Part shown: positions 28,543 to 57,275 of the stretch, piece by piece
How positions within the stretch are numbered: position 1 is the first letter of the stretch
Layout of the letters: each line of letters starts with the position of its first letter
DNA from: a virus
Taxonomy: Duplodnaviria > Caudoviricetes
Virus record (IMG/VR): IMGVR_UViG_3300020463_002067
Location: 1 to 57,275 of that record
DNA length: 57,275 bases
Strand: one strand, 5' to 3'
Translations under genes and position numbers: made by a program
The notes under the pieces: generated by a model
Told to the model about the DNA's origin: nothing
The model's input: the letters and a program-made list of their open reading frames with translations, nothing else
Database searches by the model: none

Positions 28543-28577
28543 TAAATAGTTATACTATAAAGTAGGAGTATAACTAT
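28543..28577 (+). promoter_or_regulatory. late-promoter core TAAATA overlapping an 11-bp hairpin that sequesters the RBS/start codon
   Basis: TAAATA 28543-28548; arms ATAGTTATACT (28546-28556) and AGTATAACTAT (28567-28577) are exact reverse complements; GGAG at 28565-28568, ATG at 28576. Confidence 0.65.
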
Positions 28578-36529: not shown

Positions 36530-36532
36530 ATA
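36527..36532 (+). promoter_or_regulatory. T4-late-like promoter core TAAATA
   Basis: AGTAAATA overlapping the upstream stop, 5 nt before the ATG at 36538; no SD. Confidence 0.45.
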
Positions 36533-36537
36533 CTAGT

Positions 36538-41619: not shown

Positions 41620-42578
41620 TACTTTATTTCCGTTACGTTAATTGTTCTCTTTCTTATAGTGTTTACTTTAATAGAAGATTCATTAGGTATTATGTGTTCT
41701 ACACCATAAGGATCAGTTGCTTTGTTAGTTGTTCTAATATCTACAATTTTAATTTTGTTAAACTTTTTATCCCAAGGTTCAGGTAGTTGACGCCTTTCGG
41801 TCCAGTCAGAATGGCTTTCATCTAGTGTAGTAAGATGACTGCCGTTTCCAGAACCAATTGCTAATTCATAATCATCAGTTTCCCATCTAGCTCTATTTTT
41901 TTGTGGAGTGCCTATACCAATACCATAAGCAATTTTTTTCTTACCATCTAAAACATCTTGTAATATTCCTAGTTTCTTTTCCCAGAACATATTACCATTA
42001 AGGTCTCCGTGACTTTTATTACAGCCTGTTGCAAGTCCTAAACTATTTGCGGCTCTCATAACAAGGCCCATAGCAATACCTATGCTCACATAAGAGTTTT
42101 CCCAACGTGCATGATGGTTGTTATCTTTTAATGTTCCGTCACTATTACAGTTTTGTTGTGTTTCAGGTTGCTTTGCTACAAATAATATATATAGGCTTGC
42201 ATTAGCTTGTGTATTACGCCATGTTGAAGGCGGAGTTCTAGTGTGTGTTGACCCCCAGGTATACTTTGAACATTCTTCAATTACTTTTCTATCTGCGGTC
42301 CAGTATACATCATAGTATGCTTCGTGTTGTTTAGATGGAGAGTTTTCTGCGTGCCATAATAAGAAGTCAACTGTTTCAGGATGTACAGGTTCGCTATAAT
42401 CCCAATTACGCTGACATTTTTGCATATTGCGTATAATTTCCATTTCTTGATCCCAGTTGTAGAACATGTGTTTTATATGCATATCTCTTTCTTGGCTTCG
42501 AACATTAAAACCGTAAGCAATTCTTGCTTGCCTATTTGCTTCACTTTCACCAAATTTTCTACTAAATTTCTTACCCAC
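41619..42578 (-). CDS. nitroreductase-superfamily flavoprotein (third, more divergent)
   Basis: CQRNWDYSEPV, NSPSKQHEAYY, SIGIAMGLVMRAANSLGLATGC, GIGIG; GTG start with AAGGAG RBS. Confidence 0.7.
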   Translation of the reverse strand: MGKKFSRKFGESEANRQARIAYGFNVRSQERDMHIKHMFYNWDQEMEIIRNMQKCQRNWDYSEPVHPETVDFLLWHAENSPSKQHEAYYDVYWTADRKVIEECSKYTWGSTHTRTPPSTWRNTQANASLYILFVAKQPETQQNCNSDGTLKDNNHHARWENSYVSIGIAMGLVMRAANSLGLATGCNKSHGDLNGNMFWEKKLGILQDVLDGKKKIAYGIGIGTPQKNRARWETDDYELAIGSGNGSHLTTLDESHSDWTERRQLPEPWDKKFNKIKIVDIRTTNKATDPYGVEHIIPNESSIKVNTIRKRTINVTEIK

Positions 42579-42603
42579 AATGGTCTCCTTAATTAGTTAT
42601 ACA

Positions 42604-42611
42604 TATTTATT
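42604..42611 (-). promoter_or_regulatory. T4-late-like promoter AATAAATA
   Basis: TATTTATT on + strand in the divergent intergenic region, 25 nt upstream of the 42578 start. Confidence 0.55.
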
Positions 42612-42646
42612 ACATGCCATATTGCTTAAATGCAATGCTGATGTAA

Positions 42647-42654
42647 AATAAGTA
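42647..42654 (+). promoter_or_regulatory. possible variant late promoter AATAAGTA
   Basis: 6/8 match, upstream of an AGGAG RBS and the ATG at 42677; the divergent + strand operon needs its own promoter. Confidence 0.3.
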
Positions 42655-42676
42655 ATATAGTAGCAGGAGAACAAGA

Positions 42677-43297
42677 ATGTTAGAATATGTGACCTTATGT
42701 ACCTATGGCGATTTTATAGAATTAGACATTACATTAAAAGAACCAAAGAATATTGTAAAATGGTCTGAGGAAAACTTTACATATGTGAAGTATAATCCTC
42801 GCAAAAATATTAATCGTTGGGGACTAAGTATTACAAGTTTAGACGGAGGTTTATCAGGACGTCCTGACCTTGATTCCTTTTACGCAGAAGATCCTGCATC
42901 TATGCCAACAGAGATGGATATTAATGTACCTACGCCTGTTTACGAGCATCCTGAAATTAAAAAGTTATGCGAACATTGGCAACCTTATGTAGGACGTTCA
43001 CACTTCTTAAAAATACCTCCAGGAGGATTTTTCCCACCACACAGAGATTTCAAATCTACTGACTTACATTCTTTTAGAATAATTGTGCCTATGAGAAATA
43101 TGGAATATCCTAAGTTTACATTTATGCTAGAAGATAAAATTTTACCTTGGAAAAACGGCTCTGCATATTTTCTTAATACTGCAAAACAACATCATTTGTT
43201 TAATGCTGGGAGCGAAGATGCTTATATGATTGTACTTAATGTAGGAACTAATCCTAAAACAGTTATGACAGTTATTGAGCGTATGCGAGCAAAATGA
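42677..43297 (+). CDS. 2OG-Fe(II) oxygenase, aspartyl/asparaginyl beta-hydroxylase-like
   Basis: IPPGGFFPPHRD (HxD), RIIVP, YFLNTAKQHHLFNAG (distal His). Confidence 0.8.
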   Translation: MLEYVTLCTYGDFIELDITLKEPKNIVKWSEENFTYVKYNPRKNINRWGLSITSLDGGLSGRPDLDSFYAEDPASMPTEMDINVPTPVYEHPEIKKLCEHWQPYVGRSHFLKIPPGGFFPPHRDFKSTDLHSFRIIVPMRNMEYPKFTFMLEDKILPWKNGSAYFLNTAKQHHLFNAGSEDAYMIVLNVGTNPKTVMTVIERMRAK

Positions 43298-43818
43298 ATT
43301 ATTACACTGAAGAACTAACACAGGTCACGCCTGCTTTAGAAGACTTTATAGCACAGTGCAAATTGTTTGGTTGGAAAAACAATAGCAGTCTCAAAGAACT
43401 ACGTTGGGATTGGTGCTTAGAAAAAGGTATGTGGTATGCTACATACACAGATAATACAATAGTAAGCCTTACAGGTATACATCCTTTTAAGGACGGCTAT
43501 AGAGCTTTATATAGAGGAGCTCAGTTATGGCCACGACGTGTAAAAGGACTGAACAGATATCAAATGCAAAGTTGGGGTATATATGCACACCTTCCTCTAC
43601 AGATAGAATTTGCAAAAGGCAAGCCTTTATACATCACAACAAATACAGATAGAGATAACAGTGGGAGAATGAATAGGATACACAATAGTTTTTCTGCTAT
43701 GGCTAGAGGTAAAATGGTTGAATGGATTTGTAACGAACAAGTTTTTAATTCTGTACAAAGTATTTGGAAATTAAATAATGACAAATATTTTGAAATAAGG
43801 AAACGTTATGAAGATTAA
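43294..43818 (+). CDS. hypothetical protein, possible GNAT-like fold
   Basis: 174 aa, ATGA coupling; WYATYTDNTIVSLTGIH...YRALYRGAQL resembles GNAT beta strands, weakly. Confidence 0.45.
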   Translation: MNYYTEELTQVTPALEDFIAQCKLFGWKNNSSLKELRWDWCLEKGMWYATYTDNTIVSLTGIHPFKDGYRALYRGAQLWPRRVKGLNRYQMQSWGIYAHLPLQIEFAKGKPLYITTNTDRDNSGRMNRIHNSFSAMARGKMVEWICNEQVFNSVQSIWKLNNDKYFEIRKRYED

Positions 43819-44974
43819 CATAATCGGCGGAGGAACAAGTGGTTGGTGGACTGCTGGTTATCTACGTAAAAATCATCCTGATATTGAGATAACACTTATT
43901 GAATCACCTAACATAGCAACAGTTGGCGTGGGCGAAAGTACTATGCCTAATGTAAGAGCATTCTTTGAAGAATTAGAAATACCAGAAGAAGCATGGATCA
44001 AAAGTTGTAGTGGAGTACGTAAAGAAGGAAATGTAAAAACAAATTTTAATTATGTAGGTGACGAGCCTTTAAATTTTATGTTTATTCATAGCGGGTTTGA
44101 TGAATGGTATGAGAAATATAAAAACAAGGAAGTAACCAAATACAGTTTATATGATTTATATAATCCAGATGATTGGAGAGGATTCGCATATCACATTGAT
44201 GCCGCTCAAGCATGGCAAATTGTAAAAGAATACACAAAAGATATTAACCACGTGCTTTCTACTGTTACGAGAGAAGAATTACCACAAGCAGATTTAAATA
44301 TAGATTGTACAGGATTAGGTAAGCATCTAATGAAAGATAAAACTATGCATACCTATCCAGATACATTAGTTGATACTTGTATTGTAAGACGTATACAAGA
44401 AGATACAAAAAATTATTCGGAAACTATAGGTAGAGATTATGGTTGGGACTTTAATGTCTATCTGAGTGATAGACGTGTGGGTTGTGGATATGTTTTTGAT
44501 AGTAGTAAAATTAGTATTGAAGATGCTAAAAAAGAATATATGCAAAACAACGGACACAGAGAATTTTTAACAGATTTTCGTGTGCTTGAATGGGAGCCAG
44601 GAAGATTAAAAACACCATGGCAAGGAGATACTGTCGCCGTGGGATTAAGTGCAGGATTTATAGAGCCAATGGAAGCAAATGGATTAAGTTTACTAATACA
44701 TCATATTAAAACACTATCCAGAGTGCTCGGAAAGCCCAGAGCAGATGTTATATATAATAGAGCAGTTGCTAAGGTTTTTGATCAAGTTGCAGATTTTATA
44801 TGGCATCATTATGCGTGTACTACACGACAAGAAACAAGTTTTTGGCAACACTATGCTAAGTTAGATGGAAAAACTACATTAATGAAACGTATTCAAGATA
44901 ACACAAATTTAAAGACTAATTTGTATCCGTCGTATGTATATGCATACCTAGCAATTTATTATGGGAGTGTATAA
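43808..44974 (+). CDS. flavin-dependent tryptophan-halogenase family protein
   Basis: IIGGGTSGW (FAD), TVGVGEST, Lys in GVRKEG at the PrnA catalytic-Lys-equivalent position, YHIDA, IDCTG, VGLSAGFIEPMEANG. Confidence 0.88.
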   Translation: MKINIIGGGTSGWWTAGYLRKNHPDIEITLIESPNIATVGVGESTMPNVRAFFEELEIPEEAWIKSCSGVRKEGNVKTNFNYVGDEPLNFMFIHSGFDEWYEKYKNKEVTKYSLYDLYNPDDWRGFAYHIDAAQAWQIVKEYTKDINHVLSTVTREELPQADLNIDCTGLGKHLMKDKTMHTYPDTLVDTCIVRRIQEDTKNYSETIGRDYGWDFNVYLSDRRVGCGYVFDSSKISIEDAKKEYMQNNGHREFLTDFRVLEWEPGRLKTPWQGDTVAVGLSAGFIEPMEANGLSLLIHHIKTLSRVLGKPRADVIYNRAVAKVFDQVADFIWHHYACTTRQETSFWQHYAKLDGKTTLMKRIQDNTNLKTNLYPSYVYAYLAIYYGSV

Positions 44975-45177
44975 TGGATTGGAATCACTTAAAAAAGATT
45001 AAAACAGGATACTTTAAGCACTTTTTTTATGCTATGTACTTTAACATACTAGCTCTATTAGTGTTTATAACTGGTACAATACATGCCATATTTCCTCCTT
45101 TATTTGCATTTACGCCATACAAATTAGCCAAGAAGATTACAGATGGAACTGAAAAACATTTTAAAAAACGGAACTAG
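44974..45177 (+). CDS. small membrane protein, DUF6356-like
   Basis: HL....GYFKHF..A, hydrophobic helix, IHAIFPPLF; TAATG coupling. Confidence 0.6.
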   Translation: MDWNHLKKIKTGYFKHFFYAMYFNILALLVFITGTIHAIFPPLFAFTPYKLAKKITDGTEKHFKKRN

Positions 45178-45826
45178 TATAAGTTCTAGTGGCACAACAG
45201 GACCTGCAAAACAAATATATCAAAGCCCTGATAAAATTAAACATGCAAATCAATCGGCACGTGACGTACAAAAGATTACAAGTACAAGCAAAATTTATAC
45301 TGTTTGCAAATTAGATCATGCAGGCGGATTGCTTGCACAAACATTGCCAGCTATAGAAATAGATGCTGAGGTACATATAGAACAGTTCAATCCCTTTAAG
45401 TGGGTTAGAAGTATAAAATATTTTACTCACAGTCATTTAACACCCGGAATGTGTCTTGCTATATCAAAGACTAAAGGATGGAACAATTTAGATTTAGAAG
45501 GTAAGATTATTGCTTGTGGTAGCGATAGAGTACCTGCAGAATGTATTAATAGATTTGTAGCCAAAGGTGCTACTTTTATTGCTAATTGGGGAATGAGTGA
45601 AATAGGTCCAATGGCAATAAACAAAACATATACGCCACAAGATGCAGAAGCATATGATTTGCCAGGATATACTATAATGGGTGATACAGCGTTCTGTGAT
45701 ATACAAATATCTGAACGGAATGAATTAATTGTTAAAGGTGATATTTGTGTATACGATGATTGGTTTGCTACAGGCGATATTGTAAAATTTGACAAAGGAA
45801 GTTATTGGTACTATGGTAGAAAGTAA
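45143..45826 (+). CDS. minimal adenylate-forming (AMP-binding) enzyme
   Basis: SSSGTTGPAK (A3), WGMSE (A5), ELIVKG (A6), WFATGD (A7), ends YYGRK (A8); only 227 aa. Confidence 0.8.
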   Translation: MELKNILKNGTSISSSGTTGPAKQIYQSPDKIKHANQSARDVQKITSTSKIYTVCKLDHAGGLLAQTLPAIEIDAEVHIEQFNPFKWVRSIKYFTHSHLTPGMCLAISKTKGWNNLDLEGKIIACGSDRVPAECINRFVAKGATFIANWGMSEIGPMAINKTYTPQDAEAYDLPGYTIMGDTAFCDIQISERNELIVKGDICVYDDWFATGDIVKFDKGSYWYYGRK

Positions 45827-46541
45827 TTGTATAACATTAAATTTTCCACAAGGAAGTGGAGGTCACATGCTAGGACGTATGATAGCATGTTGCGAAAATG
45901 TTGCCTGGTACGATCATGAACAAAATAATGATCATCCTTGGTTACCTTATATGGGCAAAGATAAAGATTTTAGTAAAATGCACTTCAACAAAAGATTTAA
46001 AGGAGCAAAGCCTAAAGGACTAGATCCCGAATTTACTATACCTCCAGTATTAAGTTTTGCACGATCAAGAGGAATAACAACTACTCCTGCAGATATACAA
46101 GCATGGAAGAAAAAATTATATCCCAATCACTTTATATACACACTGCATGATGACTTAGATGAAACTAAAAAGTTTTTTGATCCTGCACAGTATATTGTTG
46201 TAATACCAGATGATATCGAATTATTAATTGAAAGATGGATGCGATCAAGTTATTATTATTTTGTTGATCCTAAAAACAAAGAATATTTGTACAAAGATTT
46301 ATATGAAGATAGAGCTAAAGAACAAGGTATTACTATGAAGCAAGTACTTGCTAATGAGTTTGAAATACAAATTGAAAATTATAAAACACACTCAACTGAA
46401 GATGATGTTGTTATTACAGAAATAAATGATATCTTAAAGTATGATGTATATGAAGAAGTATGCAATAAATTGCAACTTATAATTAATAAAGAAAACTATG
46501 ATAAATGTAAAGTACTGTTTGAAAACAGATCACATCTTTAA
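45813..46541 (+). CDS. hypothetical protein, possible sulfotransferase-like P-loop fold
   Basis: N-terminal LNFPQGSGGHMLGRMI resembles the PAPS-binding loop region. ATG 45813 preferred to the TTG at 45789. Confidence 0.45.
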   Translation: MVESNCITLNFPQGSGGHMLGRMIACCENVAWYDHEQNNDHPWLPYMGKDKDFSKMHFNKRFKGAKPKGLDPEFTIPPVLSFARSRGITTTPADIQAWKKKLYPNHFIYTLHDDLDETKKFFDPAQYIVVIPDDIELLIERWMRSSYYYFVDPKNKEYLYKDLYEDRAKEQGITMKQVLANEFEIQIENYKTHSTEDDVVITEINDILKYDVYEEVCNKLQLIINKENYDKCKVLFENRSHL

Positions 46542-47267
46542 TATTTCAAAATAGAAACGTTTTCTATCTTTTTTGTATTGCTCTAACTTACAGTTATATT
46601 CTTTTGCAAGTGCATATGCAAATTCGAAACTCCACGGAAATATATCTACGTAAGGTCCTTTAGGCCAAAGTATCCCTGGATTGACTCTAAAATACATTCT
46701 TCCACCTACGTCTAGTAAAGAATGTAACTTTGTAAAACGAGTACGAATATCAGCTTCGTCACCAAAGTTCAAACTACCAAACACAATCATATGGTCATAC
46801 TTTTCATCTACATTAAAGTCTAATATATCTACCATATAATCTGCATTTTCGTTGAAAGGATCTATTCCTGTAAGATTCTTAATACGTGGTTTAAATTGAT
46901 TATAACCACAACCAAAGTCTAAAACATTCTTTGGATCACGCTCATTTATTCTATCAACAATACTCCAACCACTGTAGGTATGTTCATCTGTATTAGGCTT
47001 CCATATTTCTCCAAAGAACCTTTTCATATAAAATGTATCTAATGATTGTACAAATTGTTCTACTGTACCAGTCAAATCTAATTGTTCAATATCTAATTCA
47101 TGCATTAAACTTTGACAGAACTTTTCTTTACGTGCAGGTGTAAATGGCATATCGTCAATAATACTATGCTTATCTAATTGCAAGTCACCGTATTTAGGCA
47201 AGCTAAACGCTTGTTCTAAATTTTGCATAACTAACGAAAAAATTCGTGTATTCATAATTTTTTTCAC
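46530..47267 (-). CDS. class I SAM-dependent methyltransferase with an N-terminal helical (ACP-like?) domain
   Basis: VLDFGCG, TGIDP, YDHMIVFGSLNF, LDVGGRMY; about 80 aa N-terminal extension. Confidence 0.8.
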   Translation of the reverse strand: MKKIMNTRIFSLVMQNLEQAFSLPKYGDLQLDKHSIIDDMPFTPARKEKFCQSLMHELDIEQLDLTGTVEQFVQSLDTFYMKRFFGEIWKPNTDEHTYSGWSIVDRINERDPKNVLDFGCGYNQFKPRIKNLTGIDPFNENADYMVDILDFNVDEKYDHMIVFGSLNFGDEADIRTRFTKLHSLLDVGGRMYFRVNPGILWPKGPYVDIFPWSFEFAYALAKEYNCKLEQYKKDRKRFYFEILKM

Positions 47268-47312
47268 TTTCTATTAAAAAAATTCCACTATTCTTCAAAA
47301 AAGTTTGTTCCT

Positions 47313-47330
47313 TATATAATTAATTATATA
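47313..47330. promoter_or_regulatory. perfect 18-bp palindrome TATATAATTAATTATATA; candidate bidirectional promoter or operator
   Basis: Lies in the divergent gap 47268-47343; gives TATAATTA (7/8 to TATAAATA) on both strands, each followed by AGGAA. Confidence 0.5.
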
Positions 47331-47343
47331 GAAGGAAAAAAGC

Positions 47344-48777
47344 ATGGCTTCAGTATTGGCATTACTTGCAGGAACATTATATGGACTAATAATTGGCATC
47401 CTGCCTGGAGCAGGTGCAACTACAGGTTTAATATTTGTATTTTCATTTATTACATTGTTTCCAGACCCTTACCTAGCAGTAATATTTGTTATGGCAGTTG
47501 TAGCCGCAAGTACAACAGGTGATACTTACACAGGTGTGCTATTAGGCATACCAGGTGCAAACTCTGCCGCGGCAACAATGATAGATGGATTTCCATTAGC
47601 ATTACAAGGTAAAGCAACTTATGCAATCAGTTCAGCAGTTACAACAAGCACACTTAACGGTTTGTTATGGGGATCGTTAACTTTCTTTTTGCTACCATAT
47701 TACACACAACTAATAATGATTTTTGGTGTTCCTGAACTATGGGCATTCACAATGTTAGCATTAGTTTGTGTTACATTTGTTACAAACAAATTTTGGTTTA
47801 GAAGTTTGTTAGCACTATGTATAGGATTGTTTGTAGGATTAATTGGAGTTGATCCTAGCACCAATGCAGATAGATGGACAGGTGGCTGGGAGTATCTGGG
47901 AGACGGCGTACAACTTATGCCTTTGGTTGCTGGACTATTTGCAATACCAGAACTACTTGATGGCCTAAAGCAAAGAACAAACACAAGCATGGTAGCACTT
48001 GCAAATGGCAAACAAACCAAAGAAGGTATATTAGCTGTTTGGCATAATAAGTGGGACGCTATGCGAGGCGGATTCATTGGAGCCTTTATAGGATTACTAC
48101 CAGGACTAGGAGGTGCAGTTGCAGACTGGATGGCTTATAGTTCTACAGTTGCAAGCCACCCTAAAGATAAATTTGGTAATGGTAATATCAAAGGAGTAAT
48201 AGGACCTGAAGGAGCCAACAATGCACAAAAGGCAACCTCTATGATTCCTACAGTATTATTTGGAATACCAGGAGCAAGTTTTGCGGCCATTGTAATTGGA
48301 CTATTTGCATATTTGGACTTTGAATTAGGTACCTTAGAGCTTGCAAATGATGCCAAATTCTTCGATAGTATGTTATACGGGTTTATGCTCGCAACCGTGC
48401 TTGTAGGCGCTATATGCTTGTTTACGACACCAATTATAGCACGAATAGCACAAATACCTTACAAATATTACTTCCCATTATTGTTAGGATTTATAGTACT
48501 TGCATGTGTTCAATACACTGGAGGTTGGGAAGATTATTTCATGCTTTTGGTATGTAGTATAGTAGGACTACTTGCCAAGCGATACAAATTTAGCAGACCT
48601 GCCCTGCTATTTGCATTTATTCTATCTGATAGAATAGAAGCACTTACAGTACAAATGACAGGACTTTATACAGTTGAAAAACTGTTAGACAAACCAATAT
48701 TCCTCGGTTTATGTGTTGCAATAGGTGTAACACTAATATGGGGATTAACATCAAAAAGGAAAATAAACTATGCGTAA
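47344..48777 (+). CDS. tctA: tripartite tricarboxylate transporter large permease TctA
   Basis: Highly hydrophobic; GILPGAG, LLGIPGANSAAATMIDGFPLALQGKA, GLFAIPE, IGLLPGLG, GPEGANNA, PTVLFGIPG. Confidence 0.93.
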   Translation: MASVLALLAGTLYGLIIGILPGAGATTGLIFVFSFITLFPDPYLAVIFVMAVVAASTTGDTYTGVLLGIPGANSAAATMIDGFPLALQGKATYAISSAVTTSTLNGLLWGSLTFFLLPYYTQLIMIFGVPELWAFTMLALVCVTFVTNKFWFRSLLALCIGLFVGLIGVDPSTNADRWTGGWEYLGDGVQLMPLVAGLFAIPELLDGLKQRTNTSMVALANGKQTKEGILAVWHNKWDAMRGGFIGAFIGLLPGLGGAVADWMAYSSTVASHPKDKFGNGNIKGVIGPEGANNAQKATSMIPTVLFGIPGASFAAIVIGLFAYLDFELGTLELANDAKFFDSMLYGFMLATVLVGAICLFTTPIIARIAQIPYKYYFPLLLGFIVLACVQYTGGWEDYFMLLVCSIVGLLAKRYKFSRPALLFAFILSDRIEALTVQMTGLYTVEKLLDKPIFLGLCVAIGVTLIWGLTSKRKINYA

Positions 48778-49816
48778 ATTATTATTAGGACTAGTATTTG
48801 CAATGTTTACTTCGGTAGCATATGCAGATTATACAATGGTTGTACCGCAAAAGCCGGGTGGTGGTACAAGTGTTTGGGCAGAGATTGTTGCTAAAGAACT
48901 TGAAAAGTATCTTGGTGAAAATATCAATATCAAACATATTCCCGGAGCGAGAGATATTCCAGGATTTAACAAATGGCACAACGAAATGCGTGATGACGAT
49001 AAAGTAATTATGGTATCACATGGTGGTAACGGTGTTGCTTTTTTACAAGAAGAAGTTGACTATGATTACCGTCAGTACGAAAGTATCGGACTTATGAATC
49101 TTAACATTATTGCAGGTAAACGTGTCGGTGAAGATATGACAACTCCTAGCTTTGCGGCGGGTAGTGGTCAAACACCAGAAGCGTATGCAATGGCAATGTT
49201 AATTTGTGGTCCAAGCCATTATGGTGTTGCATATTACGCAACATGTTTTAAGAAAAAAGTAAAATGGATTAAAGGTATGGGCGGAAGTGAAAGACGTCTT
49301 GCTTTTAAACGAGGTGAGCTAACCGGTACAAGAGAAAATCCTGCGGCATACAAAAAGCATGTTGAGCCAGACTCAAATGCAGAAATTTGGTTCCATCATG
49401 GTATCCTACAAGCAGACGGATCACATAAAGACGATCCTAACTATCCAGGCTTTCAGTTTGAAGAACTATACAAGCAAAAGTGGGGAGCATATCCTGTAGG
49501 TGAAATGTATGATGCTTACAAACTTGTAAAAAGTTTTAGAGACGGAATGCAAAAAGCATTGTGGGTAAACCAAGGCAATCCTAATGCAAAAAAATTACAA
49601 GATGCATTAACGGAAATGTCTAACAATGCAGAAAGTCGTGCTATTATCGAAAAGAAAGTTGGAAAGTATGAATGGCTAATTGGCGAAGAAGGCAATGCCC
49701 ATAGAGATACATTAATGACTTTTGTTACACCTGAAGCGTTGGAGGATTTAGTTTGGTTTAATATAGAAGCACTTGGTTTAAAAAGTGTATTCAAGATTGA
49801 GCTGGCACTAAAATGA
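48770..49816 (+). CDS. tctC: tripartite tricarboxylate transporter substrate-binding protein TctC/Bug-like
   Basis: Signal peptide (MRKLLLGLVFAMFTSVAYA), MVVPQKPGGGTSVWAEIVAKELEKYLG...IPGA, GGSERRLAFKRGEL; adjacent to tctA. Confidence 0.82.
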   Translation: MRKLLLGLVFAMFTSVAYADYTMVVPQKPGGGTSVWAEIVAKELEKYLGENINIKHIPGARDIPGFNKWHNEMRDDDKVIMVSHGGNGVAFLQEEVDYDYRQYESIGLMNLNIIAGKRVGEDMTTPSFAAGSGQTPEAYAMAMLICGPSHYGVAYYATCFKKKVKWIKGMGGSERRLAFKRGELTGTRENPAAYKKHVEPDSNAEIWFHHGILQADGSHKDDPNYPGFQFEELYKQKWGAYPVGEMYDAYKLVKSFRDGMQKALWVNQGNPNAKKLQDALTEMSNNAESRAIIEKKVGKYEWLIGEEGNAHRDTLMTFVTPEALEDLVWFNIEALGLKSVFKIELALK

Positions 49817-50499
49817 AAATAGTAATATCGCATGGTAGCGGGGGGATCAGCTCTGCTGAAACCTTCGCTCGAGATTTCTTTGAAAGTAAAGGTTACGAAG
49901 TACATCTAATCGATTACTTTACTCCACACGGAATCACAAACCTATGGTGGAGTGATGGTCAGTGGCAAGATGAACATGATTGCACATTTAGTGAAATGTT
50001 CAATGTTAACTTTCCTCAAGGTGATCTTATACATATAGGATTTAGTTTAGGTGCATTCTTAGGTATTGTTCATCACAAAAAGTTTTTGAAAAATTATCTA
50101 TTTTATCCTGGCTGTATTGCTATTTCAGAATCTATGCTTGATGTAGATTACAGCAATGCAGTGGTAATATCTGGTACAGAAGATAATGGACAAAATAAGT
50201 ATAAAATTTTTAGAGACATGTTAAAACATCCACCTTTGAAACATTATGAATTACCTGGAGTACATCATGCATTTATGGTAAGCGATATTGATAGATCATT
50301 TCATATGGTTAGATATGGTAACAAAGGAGAAGTGATGAATCAACAAGAGTTTGATCAACTCAAACCTAATCATAAATATTTAAGTGAACGTTATGGTTAC
50401 ACGATAGAACCTACAACATTGAGATCGCATAATAAATATAGATTACAATATCTAAATATGATTGAAGAGGAAATACGTGAGTATCGTACTAAAGTTTGA
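49813..50499 (+). CDS. alpha/beta hydrolase, dienelactone-hydrolase-like
   Basis: HGSGG, IGFSLGA (GxSxG), FYPG, SGTED, GVHHAF give a plausible Ser-Asp-His triad. Confidence 0.8.
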   Translation: MKIVISHGSGGISSAETFARDFFESKGYEVHLIDYFTPHGITNLWWSDGQWQDEHDCTFSEMFNVNFPQGDLIHIGFSLGAFLGIVHHKKFLKNYLFYPGCIAISESMLDVDYSNAVVISGTEDNGQNKYKIFRDMLKHPPLKHYELPGVHHAFMVSDIDRSFHMVRYGNKGEVMNQQEFDQLKPNHKYLSERYGYTIEPTTLRSHNKYRLQYLNMIEEEIREYRTKV

Positions 50500-51643
50500 A
50501 GACGGAAAGTCGTATACAAAAGAAGAGTTTGATAAAATTTCAAACGTATACGCAGAAGAATTAAAAAACGCAGGATACGACAGAACTTGTCGTATCGGCA
50601 TTTACAGCGACTGGAATAATATTTTTAAAATATTTGGTGCTATGCAAGTATGCAGTCCTGTAATAGTAGATAAAGATTCTAAAACTTTTGAATTAGATTT
50701 TTACGATATAGATATATGGAGCGATAGTATACCAGCACCAAGATTTAATCAGTGCAAAGAAGATGAAGTAGCAGGTATATGTTCTAGTGGTAGTACTGAT
50801 AAACCTCGTATTGTTCCGATTACAAGACAACAATACGATATTGATGGTTTAGATAATAATATTCAACTACATGCAAATCTTACAGATAAAGATAGTACTG
50901 TAAACTTTATTCCTTATTGGGTATGTATAGGATTTCAAACGTTCTGTGCCTGTTATAAATATGGAGCAACATATCATGTACTAAAAGATCCTTGGAAGTA
51001 TTGGCCTAAAGTACGGCCTACATTTGTTATAGGTAGTCCTAATGTGTTAAGGGGAATGATGGATCCTAGTGTTCCTTACGATAATATGACACTAAGACAC
51101 ATTAGAACTGTAGGTGCTCCAATGTATAAGGATCTAAAAATAAAAGCTCAACAGTTTTTTAATTGCTTAACAACAGATAGTTATGGTGTAAATGAATTAG
51201 GTACAATTAGCATTATGCATTATCCACAAAAATATAATAGTGTTGGTTATTTGTTAGAAGGTATGAATGTTACTTTTGGAGATGACAAAGAAATAATTGT
51301 AAACGGATTTGCTACAGGTGATTTAGGGCATATAGATGAAGATGGATTTTTATTCATTACAGGAAGAAAAAAAGAAATTATAATTAAAGGCGGCTGGAAA
51401 ATTATGCCGTATGAAGTTGAAAAAGCATTGTTAGAGTGCGGTGCTCAAGATGCTATTGTATTTGGTTACGATAATGTATATGCTGAAGTAGTAGGCAAAG
51501 TTGATATAGAAATGTTAAAACAAAAGCTAGTACGGTATAAGATACCTAAAATATTTACTGTTGATACTATTAAAAGAAAAGGTCAAGGTAAAATAAATAG
51601 AAAAGATTTGTATAATGCCTATATCGAAAATAGAAAAATCTGA
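50477..51643 (+). CDS. acyl-CoA synthetase-like adenylate-forming enzyme
   Basis: CSSGSTDKPR, YGVNE, FATGDLGHIDEDGFLFITGRKKEIIIKGG, PYEVE, YKIPK, GKINRK. GTG 50477 follows GAGG. Confidence 0.88.
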   Translation: MSIVLKFEDGKSYTKEEFDKISNVYAEELKNAGYDRTCRIGIYSDWNNIFKIFGAMQVCSPVIVDKDSKTFELDFYDIDIWSDSIPAPRFNQCKEDEVAGICSSGSTDKPRIVPITRQQYDIDGLDNNIQLHANLTDKDSTVNFIPYWVCIGFQTFCACYKYGATYHVLKDPWKYWPKVRPTFVIGSPNVLRGMMDPSVPYDNMTLRHIRTVGAPMYKDLKIKAQQFFNCLTTDSYGVNELGTISIMHYPQKYNSVGYLLEGMNVTFGDDKEIIVNGFATGDLGHIDEDGFLFITGRKKEIIIKGGWKIMPYEVEKALLECGAQDAIVFGYDNVYAEVVGKVDIEMLKQKLVRYKIPKIFTVDTIKRKGQGKINRKDLYNAYIENRKI

Positions 51644-52598
51644 TTGGTACGAAGATTATATCGTACATTGGCGCCCTACTGACATGTGTAATTATGATTG
51701 TAGTTACTGTGAACCTAGTAACCATCTAGCAATTAATAAAGCAAAGTTACCAGATGTAAATGATTTAATTAAAGCATCGAAAAAAATTAGAGATGCTGTT
51801 CCTGCTGACAAATCTGTATTAGTTTATATAACAGGCGGAGAACCGTTTTTAATAAAAGATGTACATAAATGGTTTAACTATATGGGCGAAAACGGAATGC
51901 GTGTTGGTATATTTACAAACGGCAGTTTACCGTTACGTGTATACGATTACAGTAAAGAGTCTTTCCAGAACATTAATATTAAAATAAGTTTCCATCCTGA
52001 AAGTGCTGATATAGATAAAATAGTTAACTTTGTTAACATGATTAAAGACAATAACGGTAATGTTGAAGTAAGGGCAATGTTAGCACAGAGGTTGTTTGAT
52101 AAGATATTTGAACTTGAAAAGAAACTAAAAGATACACCTATATATAAAATTCCTGTTAATCCGTTGTACAATAAAAAAACAAAAGTTACTAATCAAACAT
52201 TTGAGTCCAGTAGAGATTTAAAAGGTTATCATCAGAGATTAGATAATGGTGATTTAAATTATTATACTAAAGAAGAACTAGAATTTATAGAAACACTTGA
52301 TCAAGAAAAACCCGCATACCTAAACTTTACAGTAGACGATACAATACAAACTAATGCTATTGATTTTTTACAAAAAAGAACTAATAAGTTCTTTGGTTGG
52401 AAATGTGGTATTACAAATAAGAAAATTCTAATTCAAGCAAACGGAGACGTTCAGTACGGAACATGTGCAAATACAGGTATTGTGGGAAATATATTTGAAA
52501 AAGATTTAAAACTTTTTAATGAAGAATGGACTATCTGTGGTAAAGAAGTTTGTACTACACTTGATGAAATAATGATTACTAAGTTTAAATTAAGTTAA
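51615..52598 (+). CDS. radical SAM protein with C-terminal SPASM/Twitch-like domain
   Basis: CNYDCSYC, ITGGEP, FTNG, ISFHP; C-terminal C...GDV..TC...GNI...C....C. Confidence 0.9.
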   Translation: MPISKIEKSDWYEDYIVHWRPTDMCNYDCSYCEPSNHLAINKAKLPDVNDLIKASKKIRDAVPADKSVLVYITGGEPFLIKDVHKWFNYMGENGMRVGIFTNGSLPLRVYDYSKESFQNINIKISFHPESADIDKIVNFVNMIKDNNGNVEVRAMLAQRLFDKIFELEKKLKDTPIYKIPVNPLYNKKTKVTNQTFESSRDLKGYHQRLDNGDLNYYTKEELEFIETLDQEKPAYLNFTVDDTIQTNAIDFLQKRTNKFFGWKCGITNKKILIQANGDVQYGTCANTGIVGNIFEKDLKLFNEEWTICGKEVCTTLDEIMITKFKLS

Positions 52599-53712
52599 CC
52601 CAACCGCCGTTTTCATAACCTTGGAATTTGTTATCTGAAGTATTGTAGATAACCATACCATTTGCGGCTGTAAGTGCATCACGTTCAGTAGTAGTTAAAG
52701 AACCAAACTGAATAAATCCAGTTGCTCTTGCATTACCATTTACATGTAATTTTTCAAGTGGTCTAGGTAATCCAATACCTAAGTTACCTGAACTATTAAA
52801 TGTCATTAAGTTATTTAAATTACCTGAACTGTTTGCTGTAATTAAATTAATTCTTCCTGGAACTACGTTTGATGCCACTGTAGCATCTAGATCAACTGCA
52901 ACTCTTATCATACCTGCAAGTTTATAATCTGAGCCATCATGGCCCATACCGTGCAAGTCCATAAGTCCGTCACCTGTTGTGCTACCAACACTTGCTGTTG
53001 GAGCCGCCGCTGTACCATTGGAAGACTTAACAATAATTTTAGGTCCTGTTGATGCTCCTCCTGCTATACCAATAAGAACCAATCCTGAGTTATCGCTTGC
53101 CGCTGTTACTTTAATTTCTTTTGTAGTCGTAATAGCGTCAGCAACTATAGATGGAGATTCAATATTAGCAAGTACTCTTTTGCCTACTGAATCAATCATC
53201 ACACTTGAATCATCTGAAAATACACTACCTAGCATATCGCCAAGTAAGTTACCAGTTACATTACCAAAGTGTGTTCCTGTAGTATTTCCTACTACGTTAC
53301 CTGTTACTGAACCAACTACATCACCTGTTAAGTTACCAACTAGGTTAGTTGCTGTTACTGAGCTTGTTTCTACAGGGCCTACAATTTTGCCATTGATTGC
53401 GTCAACTAGGAGCGTTGAATCGTCTGCATAAATGTTACCTCTTACGTCTACTGCTGGGTTATCTGTTGCGGCCCAGTTTGATCCATTGTATACTAGGATC
53501 TGATCGTTCTGTGCGGCTAACGCTTGTACGTTGCCTAAATCTTCTAAATTCTGTGTTGATACAGATACTGGAGTTCCGCCTGTCGTAGCGCCATCTCCTA
53601 CAAATACTTCTTTGCTGTCTGTTGTGTAAACAAGCTCACCTTCAGCTGGTACATAACCTGGACTGGTTTGTAATGCTGTTTTAGTGCCTCGTTTGATTCG
53701 TAAAGTACCCAT
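52585..53712 (-). CDS. virion fibre/spike-like protein with an Mtd-N-like N-terminal domain
   Basis: LRIKRGT...GELVYTTDSKEVFVGDG.T.GG N-terminus; GNLTGDVVGSVTGNVVG repeats; GNLGIG..P.EKLHVNG; C-terminal LTTTERDAL..NGMVIYNT...FQGY..GW. Confidence 0.72.
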   Translation of the reverse strand: MGTLRIKRGTKTALQTSPGYVPAEGELVYTTDSKEVFVGDGATTGGTPVSVSTQNLEDLGNVQALAAQNDQILVYNGSNWAATDNPAVDVRGNIYADDSTLLVDAINGKIVGPVETSSVTATNLVGNLTGDVVGSVTGNVVGNTTGTHFGNVTGNLLGDMLGSVFSDDSSVMIDSVGKRVLANIESPSIVADAITTTKEIKVTAASDNSGLVLIGIAGGASTGPKIIVKSSNGTAAAPTASVGSTTGDGLMDLHGMGHDGSDYKLAGMIRVAVDLDATVASNVVPGRINLITANSSGNLNNLMTFNSSGNLGIGLPRPLEKLHVNGNARATGFIQFGSLTTTERDALTAANGMVIYNTSDNKFQGYENGGWVNLI

Positions 53713-53739
53713 GTAATGCTCCTAATTCATTGTTACATG

Positions 53740-53747
53740 TATTTATA
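53740..53747 (-). promoter_or_regulatory. T4 late promoter consensus TATAAATA
   Basis: TATTTATA on + strand; perfect match upstream of an AGGAG RBS and the start at 53712. Confidence 0.7.
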
Positions 53748-53764
53748 TCAAAACAACGATATCC

Positions 53765-54079
53765 TTACTTTTTCTTTTTAGTAGGATTCTTCAAAAAAGC
53801 TCTAGTTTGCTTTTGAACATCGCGTTTTACTTTTGTTGTATTAAGCCTAAAGTCTACATGTATAATATCATCGCCGTATTCGTTAAATAAATCGGCGATA
53901 GTATCGTCTAAATTAGCACCTGTGCTACGTTTAGCATTACAATCTATTTCCCATATTTTACCTTTTTTAAACTCGATACGTATCGAATGAAGATAATTTA
54001 TAGGTATAGTCTGTATATCTATATCTTTAAAAACTTCAGGCCAGTGTCTAATTACATCATCAGGTAGTGGCTTTGGCAC
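53765..54079 (-). CDS. hypothetical phage protein
   Basis: 104 aa, WPEVF motif, basic C-terminus; overlaps the upstream gene. Confidence 0.7.
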   Translation of the reverse strand: MPKPLPDDVIRHWPEVFKDIDIQTIPINYLHSIRIEFKKGKIWEIDCNAKRSTGANLDDTIADLFNEYGDDIIHVDFRLNTTKVKRDVQKQTRAFLKNPTKKKK

Positions 54080-54719
54080 TGGTTTTCTTCTTTACAGTCG
54101 GAACAAGCTCTTCTGCCTGTGCTCTAAGTGCCTTTGCTTCTTTGTACAACCTGTCAGCATCGCTACGATATTTTGCGGCTAAGTCTGCATCAGTTAGCAC
54201 ACCATCTGTTGGTGCTTGTAAATTAGCGGCCTTTGCTTCAGCAACTACGTTTGGATTTGTAGTCTTTGGCATTTCGCTAACACTACCAGCTTCGGTCATT
54301 GTTGTACCTGCAGGTAATTCGTTAGGATCCTTCATTGCTAAGTCAGCAATAGTAACACCTTTTTGCTCGGCGATAATTTTATTAAGTTCATCTAAACCGA
54401 TTGTAGTTGCAGTGTTAGGAGTCATTTCAACTTCAGACATTGGCATTGATTGCAATTTGCCTGTAGAATGAAATCTTGCTAACATATTAGCACCATCACT
54501 AAGTTGTGTTCTTGCCATAACTTCAGCAAATTCAAATGCTGTCTGTGCTGAGTTACCTTCAACAGTTTTAATTAAAGTATCATGATCGGCATCAGATAAT
54601 GTAGCAGTATCAATTACTAAAGAATTTGCAGGAGGATTTTCTCCTGGAATTACTCTGTATGCTACTACAACCTTACGGTTATTTTTCTTAAGTCTGCCTA
54701 CGTGTTTAATTTCGGCCAT
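54060..54719 (-). CDS. hypothetical phage protein
   Basis: 219 aa, KHVGRLK N-terminus, helical C-terminus; AGGAG RBS, TAATG coupling. Confidence 0.75.
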   Translation of the reverse strand: MAEIKHVGRLKKNNRKVVVAYRVIPGENPPANSLVIDTATLSDADHDTLIKTVEGNSAQTAFEFAEVMARTQLSDGANMLARFHSTGKLQSMPMSEVEMTPNTATTIGLDELNKIIAEQKGVTIADLAMKDPNELPAGTTMTEAGSVSEMPKTTNPNVVAEAKAANLQAPTDGVLTDADLAAKYRSDADRLYKEAKALRAQAEELVPTVKKKTSAKATT

Positions 54720-55015
54720 TACTTGTCTCCTTTAGGTGCTTCTGCTGGAGTTCCTTCTTTTTTGGCATCTTCTTCTGCCTTCTGAACTGTTTGCAAGAAA
54801 GCATCTAGTTTGTTAAATGTTTTACCAACTGCTTCCATTTCGTTGGCCTTGAATGCGCCTCTTTGCGATGCAACATCAATAATAGATCTTAGTACTCCAA
54901 GATCTTGTACAGTAAGTTCAACCGGTGCAGTTGATACACCTGCGTTTGGTGTTTGACCTGCCGGTGCCGCTGTCGGCGCCGCTTGAGCTCCTGCTGTTTT
55001 AGTTTCTTCTGACAT
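54719..55015 (-). CDS. small hypothetical phage protein
   Basis: 98 aa; core LTVQDL...IIDVASQRGAFKANEMEAVG..FNKL with Ala/Pro-rich ends; AAGGAG RBS. Confidence 0.75.
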   Translation of the reverse strand: MSEETKTAGAQAAPTAAPAGQTPNAGVSTAPVELTVQDLGVLRSIIDVASQRGAFKANEMEAVGKTFNKLDAFLQTVQKAEEDAKKEGTPAEAPKGDK

Positions 55016-55052
55016 ATTCTTTACTCCTTGTATGTATTATATATGCACTTAA

Positions 55053-55060
55053 TATTTATT
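55053..55060 (-). promoter_or_regulatory. T4-late-like promoter AATAAATA
   Basis: TATTTATT on + strand overlapping the upstream stop codon; upstream of the 55015 start. Confidence 0.45.
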
Positions 55061-55337
55061 TGTACTTCAAAAGTGGACACGCCAAAACGAAATATGAAAG
55101 TTCTTTTGGGTCTTCAAACCCAGCTCTAAGTACGGTTTCTATCTTGTTTTCTTTGGTTAGTCCTATTACTTTCTTTAAAAAGTATCTCTTTTTTAGATTT
55201 GTATCTATCCATTTAGAGATAGCAGTCTCCATATTGTAGGTATGTGATAGATCAATTGTAGCGAGATGTGAAGGCTCATAAGATAGCCTTCTTATTTCAA
55301 AAAAGTCTTGAGCTGAAACTCTATCTTTAACGATCAA
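55056..55337 (-). CDS. hypothetical phage protein
   Basis: 93 aa, TTG start with GAGGAGG RBS; GFEDPKELSYFVL C-terminal motif. Confidence 0.7.
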   Translation of the reverse strand: MIVKDRVSAQDFFEIRRLSYEPSHLATIDLSHTYNMETAISKWIDTNLKKRYFLKKVIGLTKENKIETVLRAGFEDPKELSYFVLACPLLKYK

Positions 55338-56629
55338 CGTGCCTCCTCATAGTGAGCAGTTACACCAAATGGTGCTTTAGTATTCTTATCGTGATGACCA
55401 TGTATAATGAATACTGTTTCACAGTAGTCTTCGTCACCCCAACTACCAAATGGATAACCATCTGTAAACATAATAAACTTTTTAGGAGTAATGTTATTTT
55501 CTTTCATATACTCCCAATTACAATCAAAGTCAGTACCGCCGCCGCCTTGTACATCATAATCTAAAAGATTCTCGCCACCGTCACCAGTAAAGTCTGCTTC
55601 GTTGTATACGGCAGTATCAAAACACCATAACTTAATATTATAGTCTTTGTATTCGTCCATAATACCTTTTATTTCTGACAGGAATACTTTTGCTTGACTA
55701 TCGCCAATACTACCACTCATATCAATTCCTATAGACACATCAATAGTATCCATAAAGTTCATACCTGGAAGAACTGCACCAGTATGCCAACCTTTACGTG
55801 AAGGACGACTAAATGTATAATCGTTTCTAATTGTAGATTGTATTTGTTGACGTAACAGTTCACGCCAGTTCATTTTAGGTTCGGTTAATTCTTTAATAAT
55901 ACGTTGCACTTCTTTAGGTGTGTTACCAGCACCAGCCGCCTGTGCAGAACTTATCATATTTTCTTTGATCTCATCTCTAATTTTTTTAAGTTCTTCTTTA
56001 GTGTATGTAGGACGACCTTCACCTTTTCCTTCTTTTTTGCCTTTAGCACCTTTAGATCCTTTAGTTTCACCTTCTGGTGCTTGTTCCCAATCCACATGTT
56101 CATCAAGCAATTCACCAAGTGCTTCTAAATACTCTTGTCCATTCTTTTCGGCTTGATCAAATAGGTCATCGTATACAGCCTCTGACATCCAACCGTCGTA
56201 TTTGAAGTCTTGATAACATTTAACAATCTTAACCATCTCACCAATACGATCACGTACCAGTGTATTGTTTACGATGTAATCACATGCGATGTTGTGTAAT
56301 ATTGGAATACGATCTTCTCTACGTGTAATATGATCAAAAACACAATGTAAAATCTCGTGTGCGATTACAAATTCTATTTCCTTATTGCTCATAGCATTAA
56401 AGAATTGTGTATTATAAAATAAATGTCTTCCGTCTGTTGCGGCAGTAGGACACCAGTCATCACAGTTTTTAACAATAAGTCTAGTAGCCATATTACCAAA
56501 GAATGGATGTCTAAGCAGTAAACCAACACGAGCAACAATAATTCTATCAGCTACATCTACTCGCATTGCCGCAAGTTCTTCTGGTGTAATGTCTGGATTT
56601 GGTTGAAAACCTTTTGTATCTATGCCCAT
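55334..56629 (-). CDS. VWA-like domain putative metallopeptidase (DUF2201-like)
   Basis: TAATDG, AHEILH (HExxH), NIACDYIVN, WRELL, IDMSGS (MIDAS), GGGGTDF, FTDGY. Confidence 0.9.
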   Translation of the reverse strand: MGIDTKGFQPNPDITPEELAAMRVDVADRIIVARVGLLLRHPFFGNMATRLIVKNCDDWCPTAATDGRHLFYNTQFFNAMSNKEIEFVIAHEILHCVFDHITRREDRIPILHNIACDYIVNNTLVRDRIGEMVKIVKCYQDFKYDGWMSEAVYDDLFDQAEKNGQEYLEALGELLDEHVDWEQAPEGETKGSKGAKGKKEGKGEGRPTYTKEELKKIRDEIKENMISSAQAAGAGNTPKEVQRIIKELTEPKMNWRELLRQQIQSTIRNDYTFSRPSRKGWHTGAVLPGMNFMDTIDVSIGIDMSGSIGDSQAKVFLSEIKGIMDEYKDYNIKLWCFDTAVYNEADFTGDGGENLLDYDVQGGGGTDFDCNWEYMKENNITPKKFIMFTDGYPFGSWGDEDYCETVFIIHGHHDKNTKAPFGVTAHYEEAR

Positions 56630-56663
56630 ATTGTGTACTCCTTCAGTGCCTTATTGTTCTTAC

Positions 56664-56692
56664 AGTATACTATATTTAATATCATATGTCAA
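56664..56692 (-). promoter_or_regulatory. sigma70-type promoter TTGACA-N17-TATACT
   Basis: -35 TTGACA (56692-56687), 17-bp spacer, -10 TATACT (56669-56664), upstream of an AAGGAG RBS. Confidence 0.85.
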
Positions 56693-56702
56693 CAGTTTTG
56701 GT

Positions 56703-56741
56703 AAAATATTGGGCAAGGTCTTATGCATGCCTTGCCCAATA
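56703..56741 (-). terminator. probable intrinsic terminator
   Basis: 12-bp perfect stem TATTGGGCAAGG/CCTTGCCCAATA (56707-56718, 56730-56741), 11-nt loop, short U-run on the - strand, 12 nt after the ATPase stop. Confidence 0.7.
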
Positions 56742-56753
56742 CTACCGTGCCTA

Positions 56754-57275
56754 TTAGGCACTCTGTGCGGCTTGAATATACTTACCAAAACGCTCATGGA
56801 ACTCATCAAAACACTCTACTTCATCTGGATCGATTGGAAGTGAGTATTGTGTAAGAGCAAGTTTGATACCCATAACTACAAGTTCAGTATCAAAGTTATC
56901 CATTGCAAACCTTAAGAAGTTATTAACTTTCGAATCAAACTTCTTATCGTTTTTATCGCAGGCGTCTTTAAGTTCATAGCAAAGTGAAACAGTCAAGGAA
57001 TACATGGCACTGATTTCTTTAGTTTCACACTCCTTAACCTTACCTTCAAGTATGTCAGTAGGGTCAGGAAGTTTTGAAGCAACCTTACGATGCGCCATAA
57101 ACTTAACGGCAAGTCCTTCGCCGACAGAACCACTTACCAAATCGGTAGTGGTGTTCTCATCATCGTCTTCGTCTTCAATAAGCTCGGAGACAAATGACCA
57201 AGAACGAGGTGTAGCAAATGAACGACTTGGGCTTTTTGGATCAAAGTCATACAAGTCCTTCTTGCTAAAAGTCAA
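56754..57275 (-). CDS. MoxR-like AAA+ ATPase, C-terminal part (5'-partial)
   Basis: FATPRSW sensor-2-like motif followed by GSVGEGLAVKF; adjacent to a DUF2201-like VWA gene. Walker motifs would lie outside the window. Confidence 0.75.
   Translation of the reverse strand: MTFSKKDLYDFDPKSPSRSFATPRSWSFVSELIEDEDDDENTTTDLVSGSVGEGLAVKFMAHRKVASKLPDPTDILEGKVKECETKEISAMYSLTVSLCYELKDACDKNDKKFDSKVNNFLRFAMDNFDTELVVMGIKLALTQYSLPIDPDEVECFDEFHERFGKYIQAAQSA

Follow-up and report, generated by a model that had tools for sequence, protein, structure and literature searches.

A phage-encoded TctA permease and a divergent TctC-like binding protein, found without TctB, as a probable two-part version of a tripartite importer

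We analyzed a stretch of viral DNA, hereafter the window, that constitutes the complete IMG/VR virus record IMGVR_UViG_3300020463_002067 (57,275 bases), focusing on genes related to those of tripartite tricarboxylate transporters (the TTT family). Because its CheckV completeness is 16, the window is a piece of a much larger, uncultured phage from the ocean. It encodes, side by side, a TctA-type permease and a TctC-like periplasmic solute-binding protein (SBP), and no TctB was found with them. Judging from sequence comparison and structural modelling, we consider it likely, with a probability of roughly two in three, that the two proteins form a phage-encoded, two-part version of a TTT secondary importer whose cargo would be a small acid. 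A sequence-only reading of the same DNA had described five overlapping open reading frames (ORFs) on the + strand, from tctA to a radical S-adenosylmethionine (SAM) gene, and these were recovered in place (Table 1), with consecutive overlaps of 8, 4, 23 (or 38), and 29 bases.

The first of the five ORFs encodes TctA, as that reading had proposed. PF01970 matched the 477-amino acid protein (P0001) at 315.2 bits (cut-off 28.9; E 7.6e-94), spanning profile positions 2-422 of 423. The protein has about 11 hydrophobic segments and ends about 40 residues past the TctA domain, without a TctB-like C-terminal module. TctA proteins carry the motif G-Hy3-G-Hy3-G-Hy2-P-G-Hy-G in transmembrane segment (TM) 1 and again in TM7 (PMC5812351). 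The duplicated motif, G-x3-G-x3-G-x2-P-G-x-G, was read in the translation of the phage gene at residues 10-24 and 242-256, and positions G10, G14, G18, P21, G24, G246, G250, P253, and G254 were invariant in 25 aligned TctAs. Across related loci, TctA was 72-99% identical to that of the window and represented at least three diverged phage groups, with ratios of nonsynonymous to synonymous substitution rates (dN/dS) of 0.04-0.16 for the gene. A search of the permease against 50,697 GenBank phage records returned seven records below 28% identity, one a Salmonella chromosome record and the rest short fragments, which were not used. Ahead of the tctA ATG, the sequence GAAGGA sits at a distance of 8 nucleotides, within the A+T-rich region that separates tctA from a divergent upstream gene.

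The TctC label also held, at the level of profile and fold. Direct scans of the 348-residue protein (P0002) gave no Pfam match at E<=10, no NCBIfam match at E<=1, and none in PHROGs, and a tblastn search against the 50,697 GenBank phage records returned no match. The protein nonetheless belongs to a large family, with 1581 relatives at E<=0.001 in a 90% cluster set, none of the 120 listed having a precomputed Pfam domain, and with matches to 392 representative clusters at 50% identity. An alignment of P0002 with 55 full-length representatives (A1; 56 sequences) was used for profile searches and modelling. Ten of the 56 matched PF03401 individually (best E 6.8e-08), and the 56-sequence profile matched 11 Bug/TctC sequences in the PDB at E 2.6e-22 to 7.2e-11, including 2dvz, 2f5x, 2qpq, 6hke, 7ndr, 8hka, and 5oei; among the solved proteins matched were BugE (2dvz), BugD (2f5x), Bug27, MatC, TphC, a terephthalate-binding protein, and AdpC.

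AlphaFold2 run on A1 produced a model with pLDDT 94.8 and pTM 0.90, for which the top-ranking Foldseek matches in the PDB were all TctC/Bug proteins (TM-scores of 0.58-0.67, target-normalised). Its best matches in BFVD were uncultured-phage proteins auto-named PBP2_Bug_TTT or Bordetella uptake protein, and UniProt likewise holds auto-named 'PBP2_Bug_TTT' proteins of uncultured phages. The glycine-rich loops PGGGT[D/S] and G-x-G-G were kept throughout the 56-sequence family; in Bug structures, glycine-rich loops have a role in binding carboxylate. The N-terminus was recognized by eye as a Sec signal peptide. Since the family profile and the confident model both place it among TctC/Bug proteins, we regard P0002, on those two grounds, as a genuine but very divergent and extended TctC-type binding protein.

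To define which genes travel with the pair, we used a set of 40 related loci (38 viral contigs and two contigs from metagenome-assembled genomes, or MAGs), in which genes were counted only where the flank was long enough. The set includes near-duplicates (12 of 37 methyltransferase sequences repeat another), and the counts are not independent. tctC directly followed tctA in all 34 loci with at least 1.1 kb downstream, while a homologue of the upstream methyltransferase-like gene (P0276) preceded tctA in 34 of the 35 loci with at least 0.8 kb upstream, the exception being L007. The three downstream genes of the block behaved differently. Downstream flank of 5 kb or more was available in 23 loci; of these, 15, drawn from two diverged groups, had the ligase gene, the hydrolase and an orthologous radical SAM gene occurred in the same seven, and eight had none of the three. 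Those with all five genes are one close group, with TctA 94-100% identical. In relative L012, identity to the window was 96% for the methyltransferase, 95% for tctA, 82% for tctC, 49% for the hydrolase, 75% for the ligase, and 86% for the radical SAM gene, a mosaic that indicates recombination between modules. All six genes are under purifying selection (dN/dS 0.04-0.28).

These linkage counts define a fixed unit in which tctA and tctC are joined by the methyltransferase-like gene. The genes for the hydrolase, the ligase, and the radical SAM enzyme are optional, recombining add-ons of one sub-lineage and lie outside the transporter. The suggestion in the sequence-only reading of a self-contained five-gene module was not borne out, as all five genes are kept in only 7/23 loci, and the methyltransferase gene was not part of the proposed set. 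The latter gene probably encodes a class I SAM methyltransferase. Its VLDxGCG, GID, and AD motifs were invariant in 18 aligned family sequences, its Atlas neighbours are viral clusters named methyltransferases, and its profile weakly matched TehB, ToxA, and NodS in the PDB (E 0.001-0.004). Against Methyltransf_23 (cut-off 27), P0276 scored 16.6 bits and its homologue in relative L024 scored 25.5 bits. The ORF reaches a GTG at 47267, with the Atlas record starting at ATG 47255, and dN/dS for this gene was 0.04-0.18.

No TctB had been seen beside the pair in the sequence-only reading, and a wider search by three methods gave the same result in the window, in the 40 loci, and in G403, the complete genome to which L024 belongs. 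With the TctB model, PF07331, neither the window nor the complete relative G403 nor G404 gave a match at E<=10, and the two MAGs gave none at E<=1. TctB is described as a poorly conserved protein of unknown function (PMC5812351), and because of this poor conservation we built an additional probe, a profile made from the TctB-like tails that the cellular TctA-TctB fusions described below carry. This profile recovered its controls (11/11 at E<=5.6e-44); in the window and the 40 viral loci it gave no match below E 0.058, and in G403 none at all. A crude hydrophobicity screen of the 40 loci, covering as much as 10 kb to either side of tctA, revealed no ORF other than TctA with three or more membrane segments. 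Besides TctA, the window ORFs with at least two hydrophobic segments were short frames of at most 167 amino acids inside or overlapping larger genes, plus a 67-amino acid DUF6356 ORF.

We looked for cellular relatives of both proteins in a sample of 401 Pseudomonadota genomes. The permease search found TctA in 107 of them. The 11 best matches, from 11 genomes, were 33-37% identical to the phage protein (234-268 bits) and all were 653-679 amino acids long; the next were ordinary TctAs of about 500 amino acids, scoring at most 180 bits. The additional C-terminal portions of the long permeases (158-208 residues) matched Pfam TctB in 10 of 11 cases (E 1.4e-6 to 0.013, all just under the 29.1-bit cut-off), and on this basis we read these proteins as TctA-TctB fusions. 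Such fusions are rare, one having been noted in Paraburkholderia caribensis (PMC5812351). Apart from a phage-bearing bin, full-length relatives of P0002 in the sample were 25-29% identical, and 15/401 genomes had a match at E<=1e-5. Each of the seven fusion loci examined had, beside the permease, an SBP of 360-395 amino acids with 25-29% identity to P0002; when four of these SBPs were scanned with Pfam, three had no match and one was just over the TctC cut-off (29.1 bits vs 27). In all five loci with scanned neighbours, PrpF followed the fusion permease, and four had a gene for a 2-hydroxyacid or isocitrate-type dehydrogenase. A literature search for PrpF with TctA or TctC yielded, in the excerpts available, nothing beyond a SAR11 paper (PMC11796062). 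The fusion-permease loci (L054-L060 and L062-L072) make up a distinct cellular TTT subfamily, near which we also observed ORFs with the size and placement of a two-component sensor and regulator, as judged by size and position only.

The sequence-only reading had envisaged either a phage-specific clade or a recent host capture, and a phylogeny of TctA supported the former. A quick maximum-likelihood analysis covered 39 TctA rows with tails removed. In the resulting tree, rooted by assumption on 18 canonical rows, the phage rows formed one clade with a Shimodaira-Hasegawa-like approximate likelihood ratio test (SH-aLRT) value of 100, whose stem measures 1.72 changes per site. The fusion clade (98) was sister to it, and the 18 canonical rows (99) stood apart. 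This sister relation on a long branch indicates, for the genomes sampled, that the phage pair is an old, virus-specific lineage rather than a recent host capture, with TctA-TctB fusions as its nearest sampled cellular kin, a relationship that is new here. Derivation of the phage TctA from a fusion by loss of the TctB module was also considered; the tree gives a sister relation and not nesting, leaving the direction undecided.

We propose that during infection the TctC-like protein would be exported to the host periplasm by way of its signal peptide, where it may capture a small carboxylate-bearing solute. The solute would then be handed, by docking, to the phage TctA in the inner membrane, which would move it inward by ion symport. 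In this scheme the phage would supply no TctB. Three features suggest that the cargo would be a carboxylate: membership of the TTT family, retention of the glycine-rich loops, and the genes of acid metabolism that lie beside the cellular kin. The methyltransferase would be the constant enzymatic partner of the importer, perhaps acting in connection with its cargo. In the sub-lineage of the window, genes with overlapping frames have been added downstream, for an esterase of the dienelactone hydrolase type, a short adenylating enzyme, and a radical SAM enzyme. A bolder formulation, in which this is a minimal marine jumbo-phage TTT importer consisting of TctA and a remodelled TctC without any TctB, tied to a methyltransferase that modifies or traps the acid, is possible, and we offer it tentatively.

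Several observations weigh against a two-part importer and its proposed history. P0002 is missed by Pfam's own TctC model, PF03401, which has no match in the record, and the Foldseek TM-scores for its model were just 0.50-0.67. The tree has a very long phage stem, with the attendant long-branch warning, and is limited to one phylum and an assumed root, while the methyltransferase assignment has sub-threshold matches and motifs as its basis. Because TctB is poorly conserved and CheckV completeness is 16, a very divergent TctB could also lie elsewhere in the unseen ~84% of this phage's genome, or a host TctB could serve. Characterised TTT systems all have TctB, and its small counterpart in TRAP transporters, the Q subunit, is essential (PMC5812351). 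SAR11 and similarly abundant marine bacteria carry several TctCBA sets (PMC11796062), and the nearest cellular kin of the phage proteins retain a TctB-like module fused to TctA, all of which would suit an incomplete phage pair that borrows the host TctB, or a phage TctC that feeds a host TctAB. We nevertheless consider such dependence unlikely, since a plug-in would not need a permease of its own and the phage loci with flank have one in 34/34 cases. Moreover, no cellular TctA in the sample exceeds 37% identity to the phage permease, making the fit of the latter with a foreign TctB not obvious, and archaeal TctA homologues exist without TctB or TctC (Winnen et al. 2003, via PMC5812351).

Another reading keeps the five genes together as a pathway, in which an imported carboxylate would pass through hydrolysis, adenylation, and radical modification to serve the adjacent biosynthetic island. 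Carboxylates are substrates of ANL enzymes, the five frames overlap, no + strand terminator-like site lies between them outside coding noise, and one contig from an RNA library spans tctC and the hydrolase gene. The ligase also follows the pair in two diverged groups. Yet the complete set is restricted to one close group, eight loci have none of the three enzymes, the mosaic identity in L012 points to recombination between modules, and no carrier protein or coenzyme A-using partner was seen, which together leave this pathway doubtful, if less so than reliance on a host TctB. By far the least credible explanation is that bacterial transporter genes were joined onto a phage contig by contamination or chimeric assembly. 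Two relatives do sit in MAGs labelled Polynucleobacter and Legionellales, but in the 'Legionellales' bin the contig with tctA also encodes PhoH and a GH108 lysozyme, and two further contigs have T4-type capsid genes. There is no G+C step at the edges of the block (0.32-0.39 there vs 0.28-0.40 window-wide), the same junctions with phage genes recur in many independent viral contigs, and, apart from the phage-bearing bin, no close copy was present in any of the 401 sampled genomes. Phage genes flank the block on both sides, with gp5-like, PAAR, gp25, baseplate wedge (phrog_10646, E 3e-284), and tail-fibre genes in the left side of the window, and an Mtd_N-domain gene followed by a gene run kept in related viral contigs to the right. 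The block recurs in 38 IMG/VR loci, and relative L024 lies in a complete genome (G403) of 328,292 bases with terminal repeats, CheckV completeness of 100, and the T4-type capsid gene gp23. We therefore rejected host contamination and take the genes to be phage-borne, as the sequence-only reading had assumed, and return to the two-part importer as the preferred reading.

Table 1. Features of the transporter block and its upstream neighbour in the window.
Feature	Position	Strand	Basis
Class I SAM-methyltransferase-like gene (P0276)	46530..47255	-	Sub-threshold Pfam match and motifs
A+T-rich intergenic region between the divergent methyltransferase gene and tctA	47268..47343	.	Sequence read
tctA, TTT-family permease (P0001, 477 aa)	47344..48777	+	PF01970 full-length match
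Divergent, extended TctC/Bug-type periplasmic solute-binding protein (P0002, 348 aa), signal peptide	48770..49816	+	Profile and fold
Dienelactone-hydrolase-type alpha/beta serine hydrolase (P0003, 228 aa), lineage-specific accessory	49813..50499	+	Fold, catalytic residues
Short ANL-superfamily adenylate-forming enzyme (P0004)	50477..51643	+	PF00501
Radical SAM enzyme (P0005, 327 aa), Cys-rich C-terminal part	51615..52598	+	PF04055

The three downstream genes were upheld as encoding a hydrolase, an adenylate-forming enzyme, and a radical SAM enzyme. For the hydrolase (P0003), direct scans gave nothing usable in Pfam (E<=10), NCBIfam (E<=1), or PHROGs; a weak NCBIfam match (E 0.012, 15 bits vs a cut-off of 182) was set aside, and the family profile matched no PDB sequence. 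The protein has 36 relatives, and HGSGG, GFSxG (Ser78), Asp124, and His152 were invariant in 34 aligned family sequences, consistent with a serine hydrolase. Its AlphaFold2 model (pLDDT 95.5) matched alpha/beta serine hydrolases in Foldseek, and VIA-align ranked chains of the dienelactone hydrolase family first (7jiz; Z 16.9, root-mean-square deviation 2.9 A over 186 residues). The ligase (P0004) is an adenylate-forming enzyme by PF00501 (66.2 bits, cut-off 29.9), with profile positions 125-359 of 384 covered and about 120 N-terminal positions unmatched; its C-terminal part (residues 275-390) matched NCBIfam acyl-CoA synthetase models far below their cut-offs. The ligase ORF opens at TTG 50462 and the Atlas record begins at residue 6, GTG 50477, which is the more likely start. 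The radical SAM enzyme (P0005) matched PF04055 at 43.6 bits (cut-off 29.5) and has CxxxCxxC at residues 25-32 (Cys25, Cys29, Cys32); its best NCBIfam match was the STM4011 family, at 49 bits vs a cut-off of 200.

Contigs from RNA libraries (four runs, two studies) covered tctA, tctC, the hydrolase, and the ligase at 90-99% identity, and three of them span the tctA/tctC junction. As RNA libraries can contain DNA, and contigs give neither strand nor level, these contigs are a weak hint of expression; parts of the block without such contigs carry no meaning. A consensus promoter scan returned 19 sites vs 33.4 in shuffles, and terminator-like sites numbered 7 vs 3.6 in shuffles, mostly inside genes; nothing was inferred from either.

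The three downstream enzymes form the end of a roughly 24-kb tailoring-enzyme island flanked by tail-fibre genes. Upstream of the transporter, the large part of this island at 28576-46541, whose content differs among relatives, holds three nitroreductase-like proteins, two further radical SAM enzymes, a DegT-type aminotransferase, a carbamoyltransferase, two weak GDSL-like matches, a Trp-halogenase-like flavoprotein, a cupin hydroxylase-like protein, and many ORFs with no match. Within it, a 227-amino acid ORF at 45143-45826 (+) covers only positions 170-375 of the AMP-binding model, and an overlapping 250-amino acid ORF at 45789-46541 (+) has no match; the two are also separate in relatives, at 45-49% identity, and may be a split or reduced second adenylating enzyme. 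Farther left, the baseplate wedge gene and the tail-fibre genes have one 5032-amino acid ORF (6448-21546, +) between them. To the right of the block, the gene with the Mtd_N (major tropism determinant N-terminal) domain (52585-53712, -) runs towards the radical SAM gene and overlaps its end by 14 bases. A search for direct repeats of at least 40 nucleotides in 40000-57275 found none, and thus no sign of a diversity-generating retroelement beside it. A DUF2201 metallopeptidase gene with a VWA-like domain (55334-56629, -; phrog_1314, E 1e-109) adjoins an ATPase gene (56754-57275, -; phrog_1297), and this pair is kept in nearly all related contigs. No tRNA genes were found in the window.

By their baseplate wedge protein, the nearest cultured phages are jumbo myoviruses of 340-490 kb with 32-37% identity, namely Atu_ph07, Phosso, SCTP-2, a Vibrio phage, and 350-kb Salmonella phages. 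In the 'Legionellales' MAG (L041 / G001), the tctA contig carries DnaJ and a ClpB-like gene in addition to PhoH and the lysozyme, and jumbo-phage contigs appear to have been binned into this bacterial MAG.

The phage pair resembles cellular TTT systems (TC 2.A.80) in having a TctA with both copies of the glycine-rich motif next to a gene for a periplasmic binding protein of the Bug/TctC fold, and in a carboxylate as the probable cargo. It differs in lacking TctB, a subunit of 4-5 helices, in its gene order of A then C, and in being encoded by a virus. The phage binding protein also exceeds the solved Bug/TctC chains by about 40 residues and escapes the Pfam TctC model. Cellular TTT systems usually adjoin a two-component regulator, whereas the constant neighbour of the phage pair is the methyltransferase-like gene. 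The fused TctA-TctB permeases, the nearest cellular relatives of both phage proteins at the identities given above, differ in their greater length, their C-terminal TctB-like module, and their PrpF and dehydrogenase neighbours. Archaeal TctA homologues, compared here by description, share the absence of TctB; unlike the phage permease, they also have no binding protein.

Cyanophages encode a phosphate-binding protein, PstS, that uses the host ATP-binding cassette (ABC) permease. As in the system proposed here, the phage supplies a periplasmic binding protein that raises solute uptake during infection; the difference is that PstS serves a host ABC permease, whereas in the window the phage encodes the permease too, and this is a secondary transporter. 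Viral tctA has been reported before, on SUP05 viral contigs, as a putative auxiliary gene listed as 'protein domain hit only' with role unknown (PMC4164917), and in a review table (PMC6359870). The SUP05 case likewise concerns a TctA domain on a marine viral contig, and the excerpt of PMC4164917 mentions neither a TctC partner, nor the lack of TctB, nor linkage. In the literature searched, limited to excerpts, these two articles were the only mentions of viral tctA and contained no characterised phage TctA-TctC pair, in agreement with the sequence-only reading, which knew of no characterised example.

A widespread lineage of TctA and TctC without TctB that is under purifying selection offers a ready test case for the role of TctB, and its value is heightened by the nearest cellular kin having TctB fused to TctA. 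By carrying a secondary transporter's permease together with its binding protein, the virus goes further than known phage-encoded binding proteins. If the bolder formulation of a minimal importer without any TctB were true, the system would be natural proof that TctB is dispensable in binding-protein-dependent transport, and would represent a virus-specific way to redirect, in the course of infection, how one abundant marine organic acid is taken up. Because the family is common in ocean metagenomes, with 1581 protein clusters matching P0002, it may influence the choice of dissolved organic acid that is consumed by infected cells.

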